This document shows positions 18,001-21,000 of a DNA stretch of 40,184 nt, one piece after another (position 1 is the stretch's first letter; each line of letters begins with the position of its first letter). Position numbers: made by a program. The stretch comes from Candidatus Nanohaloarchaea archaeon (GTDB taxonomy: Archaea; Nanohalarchaeota; Nanosalinia; Nanosalinales; Nanosalinaceae). The DNA lies in contig JAWOFP010000029.1 of the NCBI GenBank assembly GCA_046497485.1, positions 1-40,184 of the forward strand. Direction: 5' to 3'.

Positions 18001-21000
18001 CTAAAACATTGATTAGAGGTCAAGACCTAACTAGGGAAAGATTAGAGGAAGAACTTTTCGAGTCAAAGATTCTTGTCAGCTTTAACGGTAAGAGATTTGA
18101 CGCTCCTTTCCTTGAACAAAACTTTGACTTAGATATTGAAACCCCACATATTGACTTAATGTATCCTGCGAAGAGAATTGGCTTGAGCGGAGGCCTGAAG
18201 AAGATTGAGAAAGAGCTTCAAATTCAGAGAGAGTTAGAGGATATCGATGGACGAGAAGCAGTCAGGCTGTGGAAAAAATACGAGAAAAACAATAACGAAG
18301 ACGCGTTAGAAAAGCTGGTTAGGTATAATCAGTACGATGCTGTAAACCTCAAAGAGCTGACAGAGATAATAGTTGATAAGCTGGATAACGAGGTTTTCAG
18401 GCCTCACATTGAGTAATTAAATCATATTCAAGGCCTTCAATGATTTGAGCTGGCCCATTGTCTCATGAGTTTTTAGTTCTTCCAAGGTAAGCCATTTGAA
18501 ATCAGAATGTTCATAATCTAGCTCTAATTCCTTATTATCAACTTCAATATGAAAAGGATAAATATTCCAGAGGCCTAGTTCTCCTTCTCCAATGTGGGAG
18601 TCTCCTAAATCGATTATTTCTCCTTTAAGACCTGTCTCTTCTTTCAGTTCGCGAAGGGCTGCTTCTTTTGCAGACTCTCCTTCTTCTATTTTTCCTCCTG
18701 GAAAAGTCCATTCGCCGGAGCTGGAGTTTTCCTGGCTTCTTTTCAGCAGTAGAAACTCTCCGTCTTTTTCTGGTACTGCTAATGCTACTTCGCCATTTAT
18801 CTCTCTTTCAGGCTTATCCATGCTTTATTTCAGGTATTGAAGGTTTTTAGTTGTTTTTCAGAGCGTTATGGAACTAAAGATTTTTAAGTAGGGGGCGGCA
18901 ATTGTTAGATGAAAATGGCCCTAGTTGCTAATACTAAATGGCTGACCGGAAACATGTCCATGTCAATGGATCTGGTGAGACCTAGCTTTAACCATAGGGC
19001 CAAGACTAAATTCTCCATTATTAATTATCTGGCAGAGTAAAGCGGGATGAAGTCTTGGTCCGATTGGTGGACCAACGACCGACCGCGAATACTCAAAAAA
19101 TTACAAAAGCTTAGTTGACCTCTGCTTCTGCGGAACAGATTAGGTTAGAGGACAACTAGCAAGGGCAGGTCTGGCTTGCAAGGTGAGGCCTGCTCTTCGA
19201 CCCCTCTTATCAACGACTTAAACTTTGATAGATTAGAAGAGGTGCCAACCAAAAAATGAACGCCAACACACGCGACTTTGAAGCCGAACTTGAAGCACAG
19301 GACTTAGAGGTACGAGAAGCTCCTAAAGTTAATTCGGAAGCAGAAGTAGTTACAGCGACCGCTCTCTAAGAACATAAAAGCAGTGCTGCCAGAGAAAAAG
19401 GAAAGAATTCCTCCAGAGGAAAAGATTTATTCCTGATTACTGTAGGCAGCAGACTCGAAAGCAGCCCAGCCGTTAGCCATAGAATCCAGTATCGAAGTAA
19501 AAGACTTAGCTGGCTTCACGACTTTTCGACGGCCTTGAGACCCTTCATTCGAATCACGATACTCCAAATATTCATACTGAATCACGCCTAGACGACGCAA
19601 CTTTGGCAAAATATTGTTCTTAAGATTTGACAGGCCTTTCTCATGACCCCATTCACCGAAATTATTTAATTTTTCTGAATCAATCTCTCCTTCAGCCTTT
19701 AATTCTCGCAGAAAGATTTTTGCGTACTTGTTCCGTTTCGGCGATTGTTCATGTGGGAAGAAAAGATCGACGAGTTTCTCCCAGTTCCAGGCCCTTTCAC
19801 TTAACTTGTATTTTTGTCTATCTTCAGGGATGGCTATAGAGTTTTTAGTTACAATAGTAGAGGTCTTTCGTGCTTCCTCATCTACAAATGGATGATCTGA
19901 CATAAAGAAAGTATAACTTCTCTAATTGATAAAGTTCTTGGAAACTGATTAAAACCGCGAGGCCTCATTCAAATTTATGAAGGGAATCACCCCTGTAGTC
20001 GCTATCGTCCTATTAATGGCTGTTACTGTAGCTGCAGCAGGAACGCTTTGGACTATGATAGAGGATACTCAGGAATCAGCTCAGGAAAATGCTCCTATGA
20101 TCGAATTCAATACAGATATTCTAAATGTAGAGAGCTGCTGGTACAACAATGCTGAAGACCAAGTTAGGCTTCAGATCAGAAACGAACACTCAACGGATGC
20201 ATTGAACATCAGCAGAGTCAATTACTACTATGAGTACGATTTAACCGAAGTAGATATAGAAGGAAATGAAGAAATAATAGGGCCGCAGAGATCCTGGAGA
20301 GTATATATAAACGATTCCAGCCCTGAAGATGTTCCAACCATCGAGATCAGTAATCAAGGGAACACAATGACCCACAGATGCTTCAATCTTGACACATCTT
20401 AAGCATTTCTTTATTTCAAATTTTTCACCCCATCTTTCTACATGAGCTACGAAGAACTCTCAGAGGAACAGAAGATAGAGGCCTTAAATCAGATGGAGAA
20501 AGAACTAGATCAAGCACAGGAACAGGCCTCAGAATGGGAGGAGAAAGCCAAAAAAGTCAAAGCCGACTTTGAAAACTTCAAGAAAAAACAGGATGAAAGA
20601 AAAGAGAAATGGCAGCACCAAGCCAAAGAAGATCTGGCGGAGGAAATGATTGAAGTAATCGACAATTTGGAAAGAGCAATTTTATCTGCCGATGAGGACT
20701 CAGCGCTTCTTCAAGGTGTGAAGATGGTAGCAGACCAGTTATATGATAAGTTAGAAAGCGAAGGCCTTGAAAGAATCGATGCAGAAGGAGAAGAGTTCGA
20801 TCCTAACCTTCATAAAGCAGTAGAGAAGAAAGAAGATGGAAAGAAAGTGATTGAAGAAAAGAGAAAGGGTTACATGTTCGGCGATAAAGTCCTGAGAGAA
20901 GCAGAAGTAGTAGTTGGAGATACAGAATAGGCGAGTTTAAAAATTTTTATTCATGTAAGTAAAAATGTGGTGAATTAGAAAACAATGGCAGCTATAATCG

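Follow-up and report, generated by a model that had tools for sequence, protein, structure and literature searches.

A structured RNA element that is conserved throughout the archaeal family Nanosalinaceae lies on the + strand at positions 18911-19197 of the window (the 40,184-nucleotide contig JAWOFP010000029.1 of a Candidatus Nanohaloarchaea archaeon, assembly GCA_046497485.1), where it overlaps a short reading frame that was missed by the gene callers. The locus is read here as giving a transcript with both a coding and a structural part, and not as a plain RNA gene. The survey's finding had described an unannotated RNA gene of ~290 nt; its promoter and its covarying helices were borne out, but the RNA is not simply non-coding, since a conserved open reading frame, ORF1, takes up the first 126 nt (18915-19040). 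We tentatively propose, at somewhat short of an even chance, that the locus gives rise to a near-leaderless dual-function transcript in which translation of ORF1 and an L7Ae-type K-turn are coupled and tune the output of a second small frame, ORF2.

The element was found in 45 of the 49 other genomes of the family when the results of BLAST and of a covariance model were combined. BLAST recovered it in 40 of these genomes and in 18 of 21 genera (a count of genera that takes in the source genome), the covariance model R1 recovered it in 43, and the four genomes that lack it are 72-85% complete. The gene order histone, RNase_H_2, element, small ORF and, on the opposite strand, the 158-aa gene is kept in 29 of 30 loci, and the phyletic pattern of the element is also that of ORF2 and of the 158-aa gene. 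For 18900-19215 the + strand has an MFE z-score of -5.78, and the - strand has one of -2.37. These results uphold the proposal that a conserved and folded + strand RNA occupies a fixed syntenic place. The lack of an Rfam family, also noted earlier, was borne out as well: no match was obtained at the gathering cut-off in the whole window, and at E<=10 only chance matches appeared, the best being mir-2013 at 18.7 bits. A plain MAFFT alignment of 39 sequences, in which the GGCCAAGGC repeat is misaligned, gave only nine pairs with RNAalifold, and a model-guided alignment took its place. In the 5' part of the element 24 of 42 pairs covary; for the terminal hairpin the figure is 11 of 17. The three hairpins said to be kept by compensatory changes were all recovered as such (nine of 11 pairs in P2, seven of seven in the upper NC segment of the K-turn hairpin, and the terminal hairpin as above). 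The features of the locus are listed in Table 1.

Table 1. Features of the element and of its flanking genes (positions in the window)
Feature	Position	Strand	Remarks
TATA box TTTTTAAG	18881-18888	+	Sequence read; preceded by an A/G-rich BRE-like stretch
ORF1, near-leaderless, 41 codons + UAA (MALVANTKWLTGNMSMSMDLVRPSFNHRAKTKFSIINYLAE)	18915-19040	+	Frame, start and stop kept; overlaps P1 and P2
P1, 5' strand GGCCCU, taking in the G of the AUG	18917-18922	+	Pairs with 18996-19001
P1, 3' strand AGGGCC	18996-19001	+	Pairs with 18917-18922
P2 hairpin, 18940-18950 with 18971-18982	18940-18982	+	Conserved apex GGAAACAUGU...UGGAU
CCAAGAC, candidate alternative helix with 5' strand of K-turn hairpin	19000-19006	+	Overlaps P1 3' strand; based on complementarity
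K-turn hairpin	19042-19086	+	C helix GCGG (19042-19045) with CCGC (19083-19086)
K-turn bulge GAU	19046-19048	+	AAU in four sequences
K-turn G.A/A.G	GA 19049-19050 and GA 19081-19082	+	3b.3n = A.C
K-turn NC helix with one bulged C	19052-19061 with 19069-19079	+	Upper segment covaries
A-rich linker and predicted irregular hairpin P5-P7 of variable length	19087-19160	+	Single-sequence folds of 39 relatives, alignment by eye
Terminal 17-bp hairpin	19161-19197	+	Invariant wobble-rich apex UGCUU-GCA-AGGUG
Spacer	19198-19255	+	T/A-rich patch 19205-19211; GAGGUG 19239-19244, 11 nt before ORF2 AUG
ORF2, 37-aa acidic protein MNANTRDFEAELEAQ...VVTATAL	19256-19369	+	Conserved, behind the element
158-aa gene	19427-19903	-	Convergent with ORF2; phyletic pattern as element

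The TATA-like box noted earlier ahead of the RNA is well supported by its spacing. The 8-mer begins 32-41 nt (mode 36-37) upstream of the ORF1 AUG in 36 of the 37 relatives scored, and the distance of 53 in the remaining relative is a wrong pick by the search pattern. From the usual archaeal spacing between TATA box and transcription start we infer a start at about 18911, which is ~4 nt before the AUG. Two RNA libraries of one study contain sequences of the locus: a 364-nt contig in X5 is equal to 18924-19287 and reaches from ORF1 into ORF2, and contigs in X18 lie over 19087-19237 and 19233-19383. These are assembled contigs that carry no strand or end information, and they do not imply a single molecule across both ORFs. 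A scan for bacterial-type promoters and terminators gave nothing above shuffles. The same two RNA runs hold no contig for the RNase_H_2, NUDIX and 158-aa genes, where absent cover is not evidence; the DNA run X1 covers all 30 bins, and the run X19, which is labelled RNA and is probably DNA, holds high-depth contigs of a 90-95% relative.

Selection on the reading frame of ORF1 is seen in its start, its length and its end. Frame 0 is open in all 38 sequences, with stops present in frame 1 in 37 and in frame 2 in 38 of them, and the distance from AUG to stop (35-43 codons among relatives) is divisible by three in 38 of 38 sequences, which fall into nine length classes. Additionally, the frame is intact in five further genomes. 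In four loci (L012, L016, L027 and L029) the AUG has changed to ACG, and a compensating AUG stands in the same frame, further upstream by one or two codons. In L039 and L024, too, ORF1 begins at an AUG in the same frame that precedes the usual start by one or two codons. The stop lies 1 nt before the C helix (GCGG) of the K-turn in all 38 sequences, and its identity varies, being TAA in 26, TAG in six and TGA in one of the 33 loci that also hold ORF2; in the divergent genome G041 the frame ends at the UGA within the K-turn GAUGA when the alignment is read by eye. The interval from the ORF1 stop to ORF2 served as an intercistronic control and is non-coding, since its lengths are spread over the three remainders modulo 3 (12/11/10) and stops occur in every frame.

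The peptide itself appears to be less constrained than the RNA. ORF1 has a pN/pS of 0.71 with a pS of 0.41 (vs a pS of 0.71 in ORF2), its pN/pS is 0.54-0.78 in all sub-regions, and its entropy is flat over codon positions. The ratio is inflated because the synonymous sites are constrained by RNA structure, and in these alignments such constrained synonymous sites point to selection on the RNA. Comparison at the level of sequence has shown that selection acts on where ORF1 starts, on its frame and on its stop, and it suggests that the peptide is weakly constrained. ORF1 matched no Pfam, NCBIfam or PHROGs family, and both ORF1 and ORF2 are absent from the protein collection searched. When the translations were inspected, ORF1 was found to be basic and ORF2 acidic.

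Two helices, P1 and P2, are folded from the region that encodes ORF1. The first domain had been thought to be closed by a long-range helix between GGCCYUGG and CCAAGRC. That pairing shows no double changes and has 11 mismatches at one pair, so it was abandoned; a long-range helix does close the domain in a register shifted by ~5 nt, where GGCCYU (18917-18922) covaries with ARGGCC (18996-19001). This helix, P1, is 98.7% paired, and its pair 11:110 occurs as UA in 20, CG in 10, UG in six and AU in one of the sequences. The hairpin previously placed at 18945-18976 covaries as claimed, but it is just the inner part of P2, whose 11 pairs are 84% paired and include nine with changes on both sides. 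CCAAGRC could instead pair with GYCUUGG in the 5' strand of the K-turn hairpin, an alternative helix that is 92% paired. Its support is weak, as double changes are confined to four cells and 98 of 500 shuffles reached the number of covarying pairs that it shows. A mimic of the 3' strand of the terminal hairpin was also noticed upstream by eye.

Directly behind the ORF1 stop begins a non-coding structured part of 157 nt (19041-19197), which opens with the K-turn hairpin. The L7Ae-type, K-turn-like hairpin that the survey had drawn at 19042-19087 is confirmed as a canonical K-turn. It has a Watson-Crick C helix, a 3-nt bulge followed by tandem G.A/A.G pairs, and a continuing NC helix. The AUGA of the 5' strand and the GA of the 3' strand do not vary among the 39 aligned sequences, and a pattern search found them in 41 of 41. 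All four pairs of the C helix are 100% paired (variants GC/GU/AU and CG/UG/UA). In the NC helix pairing is 100% at the two positions beside the G.A pairs and 47% where the C is bulged, and the upper segment of seven pairs is 95% paired with every pair covarying; the lower stem GAGUA:UACUC is 58% paired and unsupported. The source genome encodes L7Ae (G000:C62:5568-5843) as well as fibrillarin and Nop10, and we infer that L7Ae binds this K-turn. As we apply them here, the rules given in the part of PMC6298567 that was available predict, from a 3b that is mostly A and a -1b:-1n that is G:C, that the K-turn would fold on protein binding and not with ions alone.

Several known classes of RNA were compared with the element and rejected. 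The claim that it is neither RNase P RNA nor SRP RNA was upheld as both were found at other loci. RNase P RNA (RF00373) has no match here, and in 35 of 50 genomes it was matched at another place, such as C1:914713 in G032, where the element is at C1:35133; neither RF00373 nor a congener's gene used as a DNA query found an RNase P RNA in the source genome. SRP RNA (RF01857) is located at G000:C59:2023-2304 with 105 bits, and no tRNA or tmRNA was detected. An H/ACA sRNA would be expected to carry its K-turn or K-loop in a set orientation above the pseudouridylation pocket and to have an ACA box 14-16 nt from that pocket. The internal loop below the K-turn of the element is 2+3 nt, the lower stem is poorly paired as noted above, and the hairpin is followed by AAUAC, AACAC or AAAAC in place of a conserved ACA. 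A SECIS-like reading does not fit as all three stop codons are in use and the frame past the stop is not conserved. An L7Ae operator placed over a ribosome-binding site or start codon was also rejected, as the K-turn sits behind the ORF1 stop and the start of ORF2 lies 184-322 nt past that stop. The element does resemble a box C/D K-turn in that its closing helix corresponds to the C helix and it contains GAUGA and xxGA boxes. A box C/D sRNA, however, would have the boxes RUGAUGA (C) and CUGA (D), unpaired guides of 10-12 nt, and C' and D' boxes. In the element a closed covarying helix lies between the boxes, box C reads GGAUGA[ACU] and fits five of seven positions, box D is mostly CCGA and is CUGA in only three of 41 sequences, and there is no guide and no C' or D' box.

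The structured region beyond the K-turn hairpin spans ~110 nt and closes in the terminal hairpin. The P5-P7 region contains the conserved pyrimidine motif CUNCCUCU / CAUCYCUAC, and the apex of the terminal hairpin holds the palindrome CUUGCAAG. Among the 25 of 41 sequences whose loop motif is within two changes, the double changes counted above were accompanied by 91% pairing, and none of 500 shuffles reached this level. The invariant G.U and U.G pairs of the hairpin fit the + strand alone. In 18 of 22 sequences a T/A-rich patch follows 1-8 nt behind the stem, and the distance from this patch to GGUG is 32-61 nt; the patch may be either the U-tract of a terminator or another BRE/TATA. A possible pairing between the GAGGUG of ORF2 and the conserved CCUCU or T-rich motifs showed no covariation in a comparison by eye.

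ORF2 was found in 43 of the 49 other genomes, always beside the RNA and on the same strand, and the element never occurs without it. Its pN/pS is 0.415 and the entropies of its three codon positions are 0.89, 0.59 and 1.43. Among the 22 loci whose spacer could be measured, seven have an apparent start at an in-frame GUG. The 158-aa gene is present in 44 of the 49 genomes, is always adjacent, and is 79-96% identical across genera; it is a neighbor of the element that possibly has a role in the mechanism. Neither protein matched a Pfam, NCBIfam or PHROGs family, and a PDB profile search with the 158-aa protein returned only eL20 at the chance level of E=0.22.

In the mechanism that we tentatively propose, a single transcript would be driven by the promoter, with the ORF1 region itself folded into P1 and P2. 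When the whole transcript has been made, P1 would hide the AUG near the 5' end. A ribosome at the ORF1 stop would have to cover and unfold the K-turn, and translation of ORF1 and occupancy by L7Ae would therefore be mutually exclusive. The element would then be a translation-coupled RNA switch or an RNP that controls how the transcript folds, how stable it is or whether it is read through, and the output of ORF2 would be set in this way. A switch would need the alternative helix, and that this helix has only four double-change cells counts against one; the distance of 150-270 nt between the K-turn and the ribosome-binding site of ORF2 counts against operator-like control. The CGGAAC and T/A-rich patch directly 3' of the terminal hairpin, which resemble a second BRE/TATA, count against a single transcript. 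ORF2 may have its own promoter, and its in-frame GUG starts would suit a separate short-leader mRNA; ORF1 could be a poor protein or merely a frame that is kept open. A more specific form of the proposal, which we consider unlikely, is an archaeal translation-coupled K-turn switch in which ORF1 is kept for the act of translation and not for its peptide. Such a transcript would read free L7Ae or translation capacity and would set the level of the 37-aa protein, possibly together with the 158-aa protein.

The strongest rival, though a doubtful one, is that two micro-proteins are encoded in an ordinary two-cistron or two-promoter arrangement, with ORF1 and ORF2 as the functional products, and that the RNA folds only stabilize the mRNA or mark its 3' end and do no switching. 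Both frames are conserved, contigs reach across both ORFs, the terminal hairpin with the T/A-rich patch behind it could signal a 3' end or form the next promoter, and the basic ORF1 and acidic ORF2 products might pair. It is harder to explain in this way why the most conserved stretches are the non-coding K-turn hairpin and the hairpin apex while the ORF1 peptide appears weakly constrained, why the synonymous sites of ORF1 are constrained (pS 0.41 vs 0.71), and why the stop is kept 1 nt from the K-turn in 38 of 38 sequences, a spacing that stability does not need. A trans-acting non-coding RNP RNA of 290 nt, with a frame that is tolerated or secondary since these archaea read whatever AUG lies near the 5' end, appears quite improbable. 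Compensating AUGs, nine length classes and three stops that are never sense codons are unexpected for a tolerated frame, the element is strictly linked to ORF2, and the contigs continue into ORF2; these stand against the strong covariation over the full length, the element's own promoter, the conserved loops GGAAACAUGU and UGCUUGCAAGGUG, the genes for L7Ae, fibrillarin and Nop10, and the likeness, by description only and in the available part of PMC7002113, to a conserved 266-nt intergenic sRNA of a member of the Nanohaloarchaea. Equally hard to credit is a 3'-UTR-derived small RNA (19041-19197) that would be cut from the ORF1 mRNA and act alone, with L7Ae guarding its 5' hairpin and the 17-bp stem guarding the 3' side, as the two very stable conserved end structures around a variable middle and the palindromic apex that could dimerize or bind a partner are set against an X5 contig that begins within ORF1 at 18924, RNA-level constraint that reaches into ORF1, and the lack of any target found.

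Genomes of Nanohaloarchaeota are ~1 Mb in size, and to our knowledge few regulatory RNAs have been described in this phylum. A family-wide and strongly covarying element without an Rfam family allows coding and RNA-structure constraints to be separated on the same nucleotides. It also indicates that in organisms with leaderless mRNAs, calls of an "unannotated structured RNA" need to be checked for conserved frames. The dual-function RNAs SgrS/SgrT and RNAIII/hld of bacteria act by base-pairing with target mRNAs. Like these, the element combines a small ORF and a separately selected RNA structure on one transcript; unlike them, its ORF overlaps covarying helices and encodes a peptide that is less constrained than the RNA. 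A halite metatranscriptome contained STRG.4577.1, a 266-nt conserved intergenic sRNA of a member of the Nanohaloarchaea (PMC7002113). Compared by description only, this sRNA and the element agree in phylum and conserved intergenic setting and are similar in length; unlike the element, the sRNA is not said to have an ORF or a K-turn in the available part of that report.

The closest parallels of the K-turn are the L7Ae operators. In the leaders of archaeal l7ae mRNAs, according to the available part of one study, GAU-bulge K-turns fold on binding of L7Ae and shut off translation (PMC6298567), and the part available of a second study describes several mRNAs that carry K-turns bound by L7Ae (PMC5539422). 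Like these operators, in the l7ae 5' leader, in nop5-fibrillarin and in other mRNAs, the element has a GAU-bulge K-turn with tandem G.A/A.G in an archaeal mRNA, and L7Ae is encoded in the same genome. The known operators lie over the Shine-Dalgarno sequence or just past the start codon, whereas the K-turn of the element abuts the stop of an upstream ORF, at 150-270 nt from the next start. The invariant position of the stop next to the K-turn suggests that termination of translation and binding of L7Ae are linked in a way that can be tested, and no description of such a link was found in the literature searched. In the leader-peptide attenuators of the bacterial trp and his operons, a short 5' ORF and complementary segments precede a downstream gene. 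The element likewise has a short 5' ORF, overlapping complementary segments (S1:S2, S2':S3 and S3:S4) and a gene downstream. It differs from these attenuators in being archaeal, in having a K-turn of the protein-binding type, in having neither a run of regulatory codons nor a bacterial intrinsic terminator, and in the weak support for its alternative helix. If the K-turn switch were true, its regulatory logic would be new, with a protein-RNA kink as the basis of an archaeal equivalent of leader-peptide attenuation.

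On the comparative evidence, the first 126 nt of the conserved plus-strand element is a reading frame (ORF1) under selection. The survey's finding had proposed an unannotated structured RNA gene; the RNA is indeed structured and promoter-driven, but with a conserved frame open in 38 of 38 sequences it is not plainly non-coding. ORF1 runs from an invariant AUG at 18915 to an LAE-stop found at one same place in every relative, and stops occur in frame 1 in 37 and in frame 2 in all 38 sequences. From AUG to stop the frame measures 105-129 nt, in nine different lengths that are all multiples of three. 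A sense codon never stands in the place of the stop (TAA, TAG or TGA), and a single nucleotide always separates the stop from the C helix of the K-turn that follows. Where the AUG is replaced by ACG (loci L012, L016, L027 and L029) an in-frame AUG is present one or two codons upstream instead; L039 and L024 also begin upstream of the usual position, by one or two codons, at an AUG in the same frame. The frame is kept in five further genomes, G056 among them; in G041, as read from the alignment, the K-turn's own GAUGA supplies the UGA at which it stops. In the internal control, the 184-322 nt from the ORF1 stop to the downstream ORF2, lengths modulo three are distributed 12/11/10 and stops occur in all frames.

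The ORF1 peptide itself is, by codon statistics, weakly constrained. Codon-position entropy is flat in ORF1 (0.77, 0.92, 0.94; for ORF2 0.89, 0.59, 1.43), with pS 0.41, pN 0.29 and pN/pS 0.71 (0.54-0.78 per sub-region; for ORF2 0.71, 0.29 and 0.415); synonymous sites are therefore under constraint, which points to the RNA fold. ORF1 belongs to no protein family found and its protein-likeness score is low. These properties fit either a frame maintained so that it is translated or a micro-protein under weak constraint, laid over a functional RNA fold.

Features of the element and its surroundings
Feature	Position	Strand	Remarks
434-nt gap	between NUDIX gene 18417-18821 (-) and small ORF starting 19256		holds the plus-strand element
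TATA-like box TTTTTAAG	18881-18888	+	upstream of element
Element	18911-19197	+	
ORF1	18915-19040	+	
P1	18917-18922 with 18996-19001	+	98.7% paired; one pair UA 20, CG 10, UG 6, AU 1; well supported
P2	18940-18950 with 18971-18982	+	9 of 11 pairs covary; well supported
K-turn hairpin	19042-19086	+	
K-turn C helix		+	100% paired; well supported
K-turn NC helix, upper 7-pair segment		+	95% paired, 7 of 7 pairs covary; well supported
Terminal hairpin	19161-19197	+	
ORF2	19256-19369	+	
158-aa gene	19427-19903	-	

The fold was scored on a model-guided alignment of 41 matches, an alignment of that kind being biased in the model's favour; 86.6% of its cells were paired and changes on both sides were seen in 24 of 42 pairs. 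None of 500 shuffles reached any of five measures, and slid controls gave 8-15 covarying pairs and 26-42% pairing. The three covarying hairpins reported by the survey were recovered, namely P2, the K-turn hairpin with its upper NC helix, and the terminal hairpin. The last, scored on the 25 of 41 sequences whose loop motif differs by at most two changes, has 17 pairs that are 91% paired, with double changes in 11; no shuffle of 500 matched it on four of five measures and 25 reached its count of covarying pairs. The closing-helix register first proposed (GGCCYUGG with CCAAGRC) fails, since it does not covary and one of its pairs has 11 mismatches, and a lower stem GAGUA:UACUC is unsupported at 58% paired. 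Region 18900-19215 folds with z = -5.78 on the plus strand (0 of 100 shuffles as good) and -2.37 on the minus strand. The invariant terminal apex UGCUU-GCA-AGGUG contains many G.U pairs, which become C-A mismatches on the opposite strand, so the apex fits the plus strand only. This apex (19174-19185) also holds a perfect 8-nt palindrome, CUUGCAAG, which could serve in loop-loop dimerisation or as a protein site. Similar motifs, GGAAACAUGU atop P2 (18947-18957) and GGAACA(U/G)A atop the 3' domain hairpin (19130-19137), may be repeated binding sites; the latter is found in about half of the genomes and CUAC-ACC-GUGG takes its place in the rest.

The K-turn read by eye in the survey is borne out. 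The hairpin has the form GCGG-GAU-GA-A-G...C-GA-CCGC, whose AUGA and GA never vary, and it shares its GAU bulge with K-turns of the archaeal l7ae mRNA leaders described in PMC6298567. Genes for fibrillarin, Nop10 and a single L7Ae-family protein are present in the genome under study. The hairpin's interior is a closed covarying helix, and it lacks both a pocket and a conserved ACA; on these grounds it was rejected as a guide of the C/D or H/ACA kind. RNase P and SRP RNA were also rejected, in agreement with the survey: RNase P RNA matches lie away from the element in 35 of 50 genomes (hundreds of kb off in closed genomes) and SRP RNA is on contig C59. Congeners G003 and G004 have RNase P RNA at 116-118 bits; in the genome under study (97% complete) none was found by RF00373 at E<=1 or with a congener's 118-bit gene as DNA query. 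As had been claimed, no Rfam family applies: Rfam 15 gave 0 matches at gathering cut-off over the whole window, and at E<=10 chance matches only (best mir-2013, 18.7 bits).

By BLAST with 18880-19260, 40 of the 49 other Nanosalinaceae genomes have the element (18 of 21 genera, the genome under study included). A covariance model of 14 sequences with a hand-drawn structure, covering 18911-19099, matched 43 of the 49 and 1 of 20 genomes from the phylum's four other families; adding BLAST fragments at contig ends in G023 and G024 gives 45 of 49, and the four family genomes without it are 72-85% complete. The sole outside match (G056:C114:51-1058, L078) belongs to a contig of 2875 nt on which the entire module is found at family-level scores (158-aa gene E=3.4e-95); this contig is probably mis-binned rather than from a second family. 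A divergent copy in G041 (L079:292-440, minus strand; 24 bits) has a CCUGG:CCGGG C helix, and searching there with the ORF2 protein of the genome under study gave no match. The fixed syntenic place noted by the survey holds, with the order histone, RNase_H_2, element, ORF2 and the oppositely oriented 158-aa gene kept in 29 of 30 loci. In loci of one genus only (L001, L002, L012, L016), the NUDIX gene is inserted between the promoter and the RNase_H_2-domain gene; in the other genera ~20-30 nt separate the end of the RNase_H_2 gene from the TATA box. The 158-aa gene occurs in 44 of 49 other family genomes and G056, the same phyletic pattern as the RNA/ORF2 module, and its product is 79-96% identical between genera, exceeding the neighbouring histone. 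Its relatives all come from Nanohaloarchaea sources; no family was found, and a PDB profile search returned eL20 alone at chance level (E=0.22).

The TATA 8-mer begins 32-41 nt (mode 36-37) upstream of the ORF1 AUG. The usual archaeal TATA-to-start spacing places transcription start 2-11 nt before such an AUG; from this spacing, the start would be at ~18911 and the mRNA near-leaderless. The G of that AUG is part of P1, so once folded the RNA would mask its own start codon. The stretch is present in two metatranscriptome runs of one salt-lake study: over 17600-20500, RNA library X5 gave one 364-nt contig (18924-19287) and X18 gave contigs 19087-19237 and 19233-19383. RNA-library cover thus extends, as contigs, from ORF1 codon 4 to the ORF2 end, taking in the structured region and the spacer; strand, ends and a single molecule cannot be read from contigs. 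A soda-lake run labelled metatranscriptomic WGS (X19, probably DNA) contains contigs of a 90-95% relative over the element (19017-19502), at depth 226-872 versus 2-10 on a few flanking pieces.

Of the 49 other genomes of the family, 43 have ORF2 (37-38 aa, MDANTRxFExEL...VVTATAL), as does G056; it always lies just downstream of the element on the same strand. Several genera have AUC or AUA in place of its AUG (window 19239-19258; L014, L018, L020, L025, L026, L027, L029, L041, L042), and in every such copy an in-frame GUG three codons upstream falls inside GGUG, which is Shine-Dalgarno-like elsewhere; the same letters would then be a ribosome-binding site in some lineages and a start codon in others.

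What is established is that the transcript is structured and driven by a promoter, that a conserved frame in it ends against a canonical K-turn, and that ORF2 is strictly linked to it. Tentatively, we propose a translation-coupled K-turn mechanism acting on ORF2 output. L7Ae would bind the K-turn. Because a ribosome at a stop codon extends over roughly a dozen nucleotides beyond it, one terminating on ORF1 would have to open the K-turn, making ORF1 translation and L7Ae binding mutually exclusive. This coupling would set transcript folding, stability or read-through, and hence ORF2 output. Three observations speak against a simple switch on one transcript. In 18 of 22 sequences the terminal stem is followed at 1-8 nt by CGGAAC and a T/A-rich patch, which looks like either a U-tract or a second BRE/TATA; ORF2 codon 1 is AUC or AUA in 7 of 22 loci with measurable spacer, with an in-frame GUG three codons upstream; and the alternative helix on which a switch would rely, CCAAGRC:GYCUUGG, is 92% paired but nearly invariant (4 double-change cells; its number of covarying pairs is equalled or exceeded in 98 of 500 shuffles). 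A plain locus for two micro-proteins, with the structure merely stabilising, is somewhat less likely than the translation-coupled reading. The survey's RNA gene taken as a trans-acting non-coding RNP RNA, and a 3'-derived sRNA, are both improbable.

The element was not described in the literature searched on Nanohaloarchaeota non-coding RNA, Nanohaloarchaea small-RNA transcriptomes and DPANN kink-turns. A conserved intergenic sRNA of 266 nt described from a member of the Nanohaloarchaea (PMC7002113) may be an earlier sighting. The closest known kind, as described in PMC5539422 and PMC6298567, is L7Ae/K-turn control of archaeal mRNAs. The locus differs from the cases presented there in that the K-turn is set against a stop codon, the conserved frame overlaps covarying helices, and the next start is far from the K-turn.
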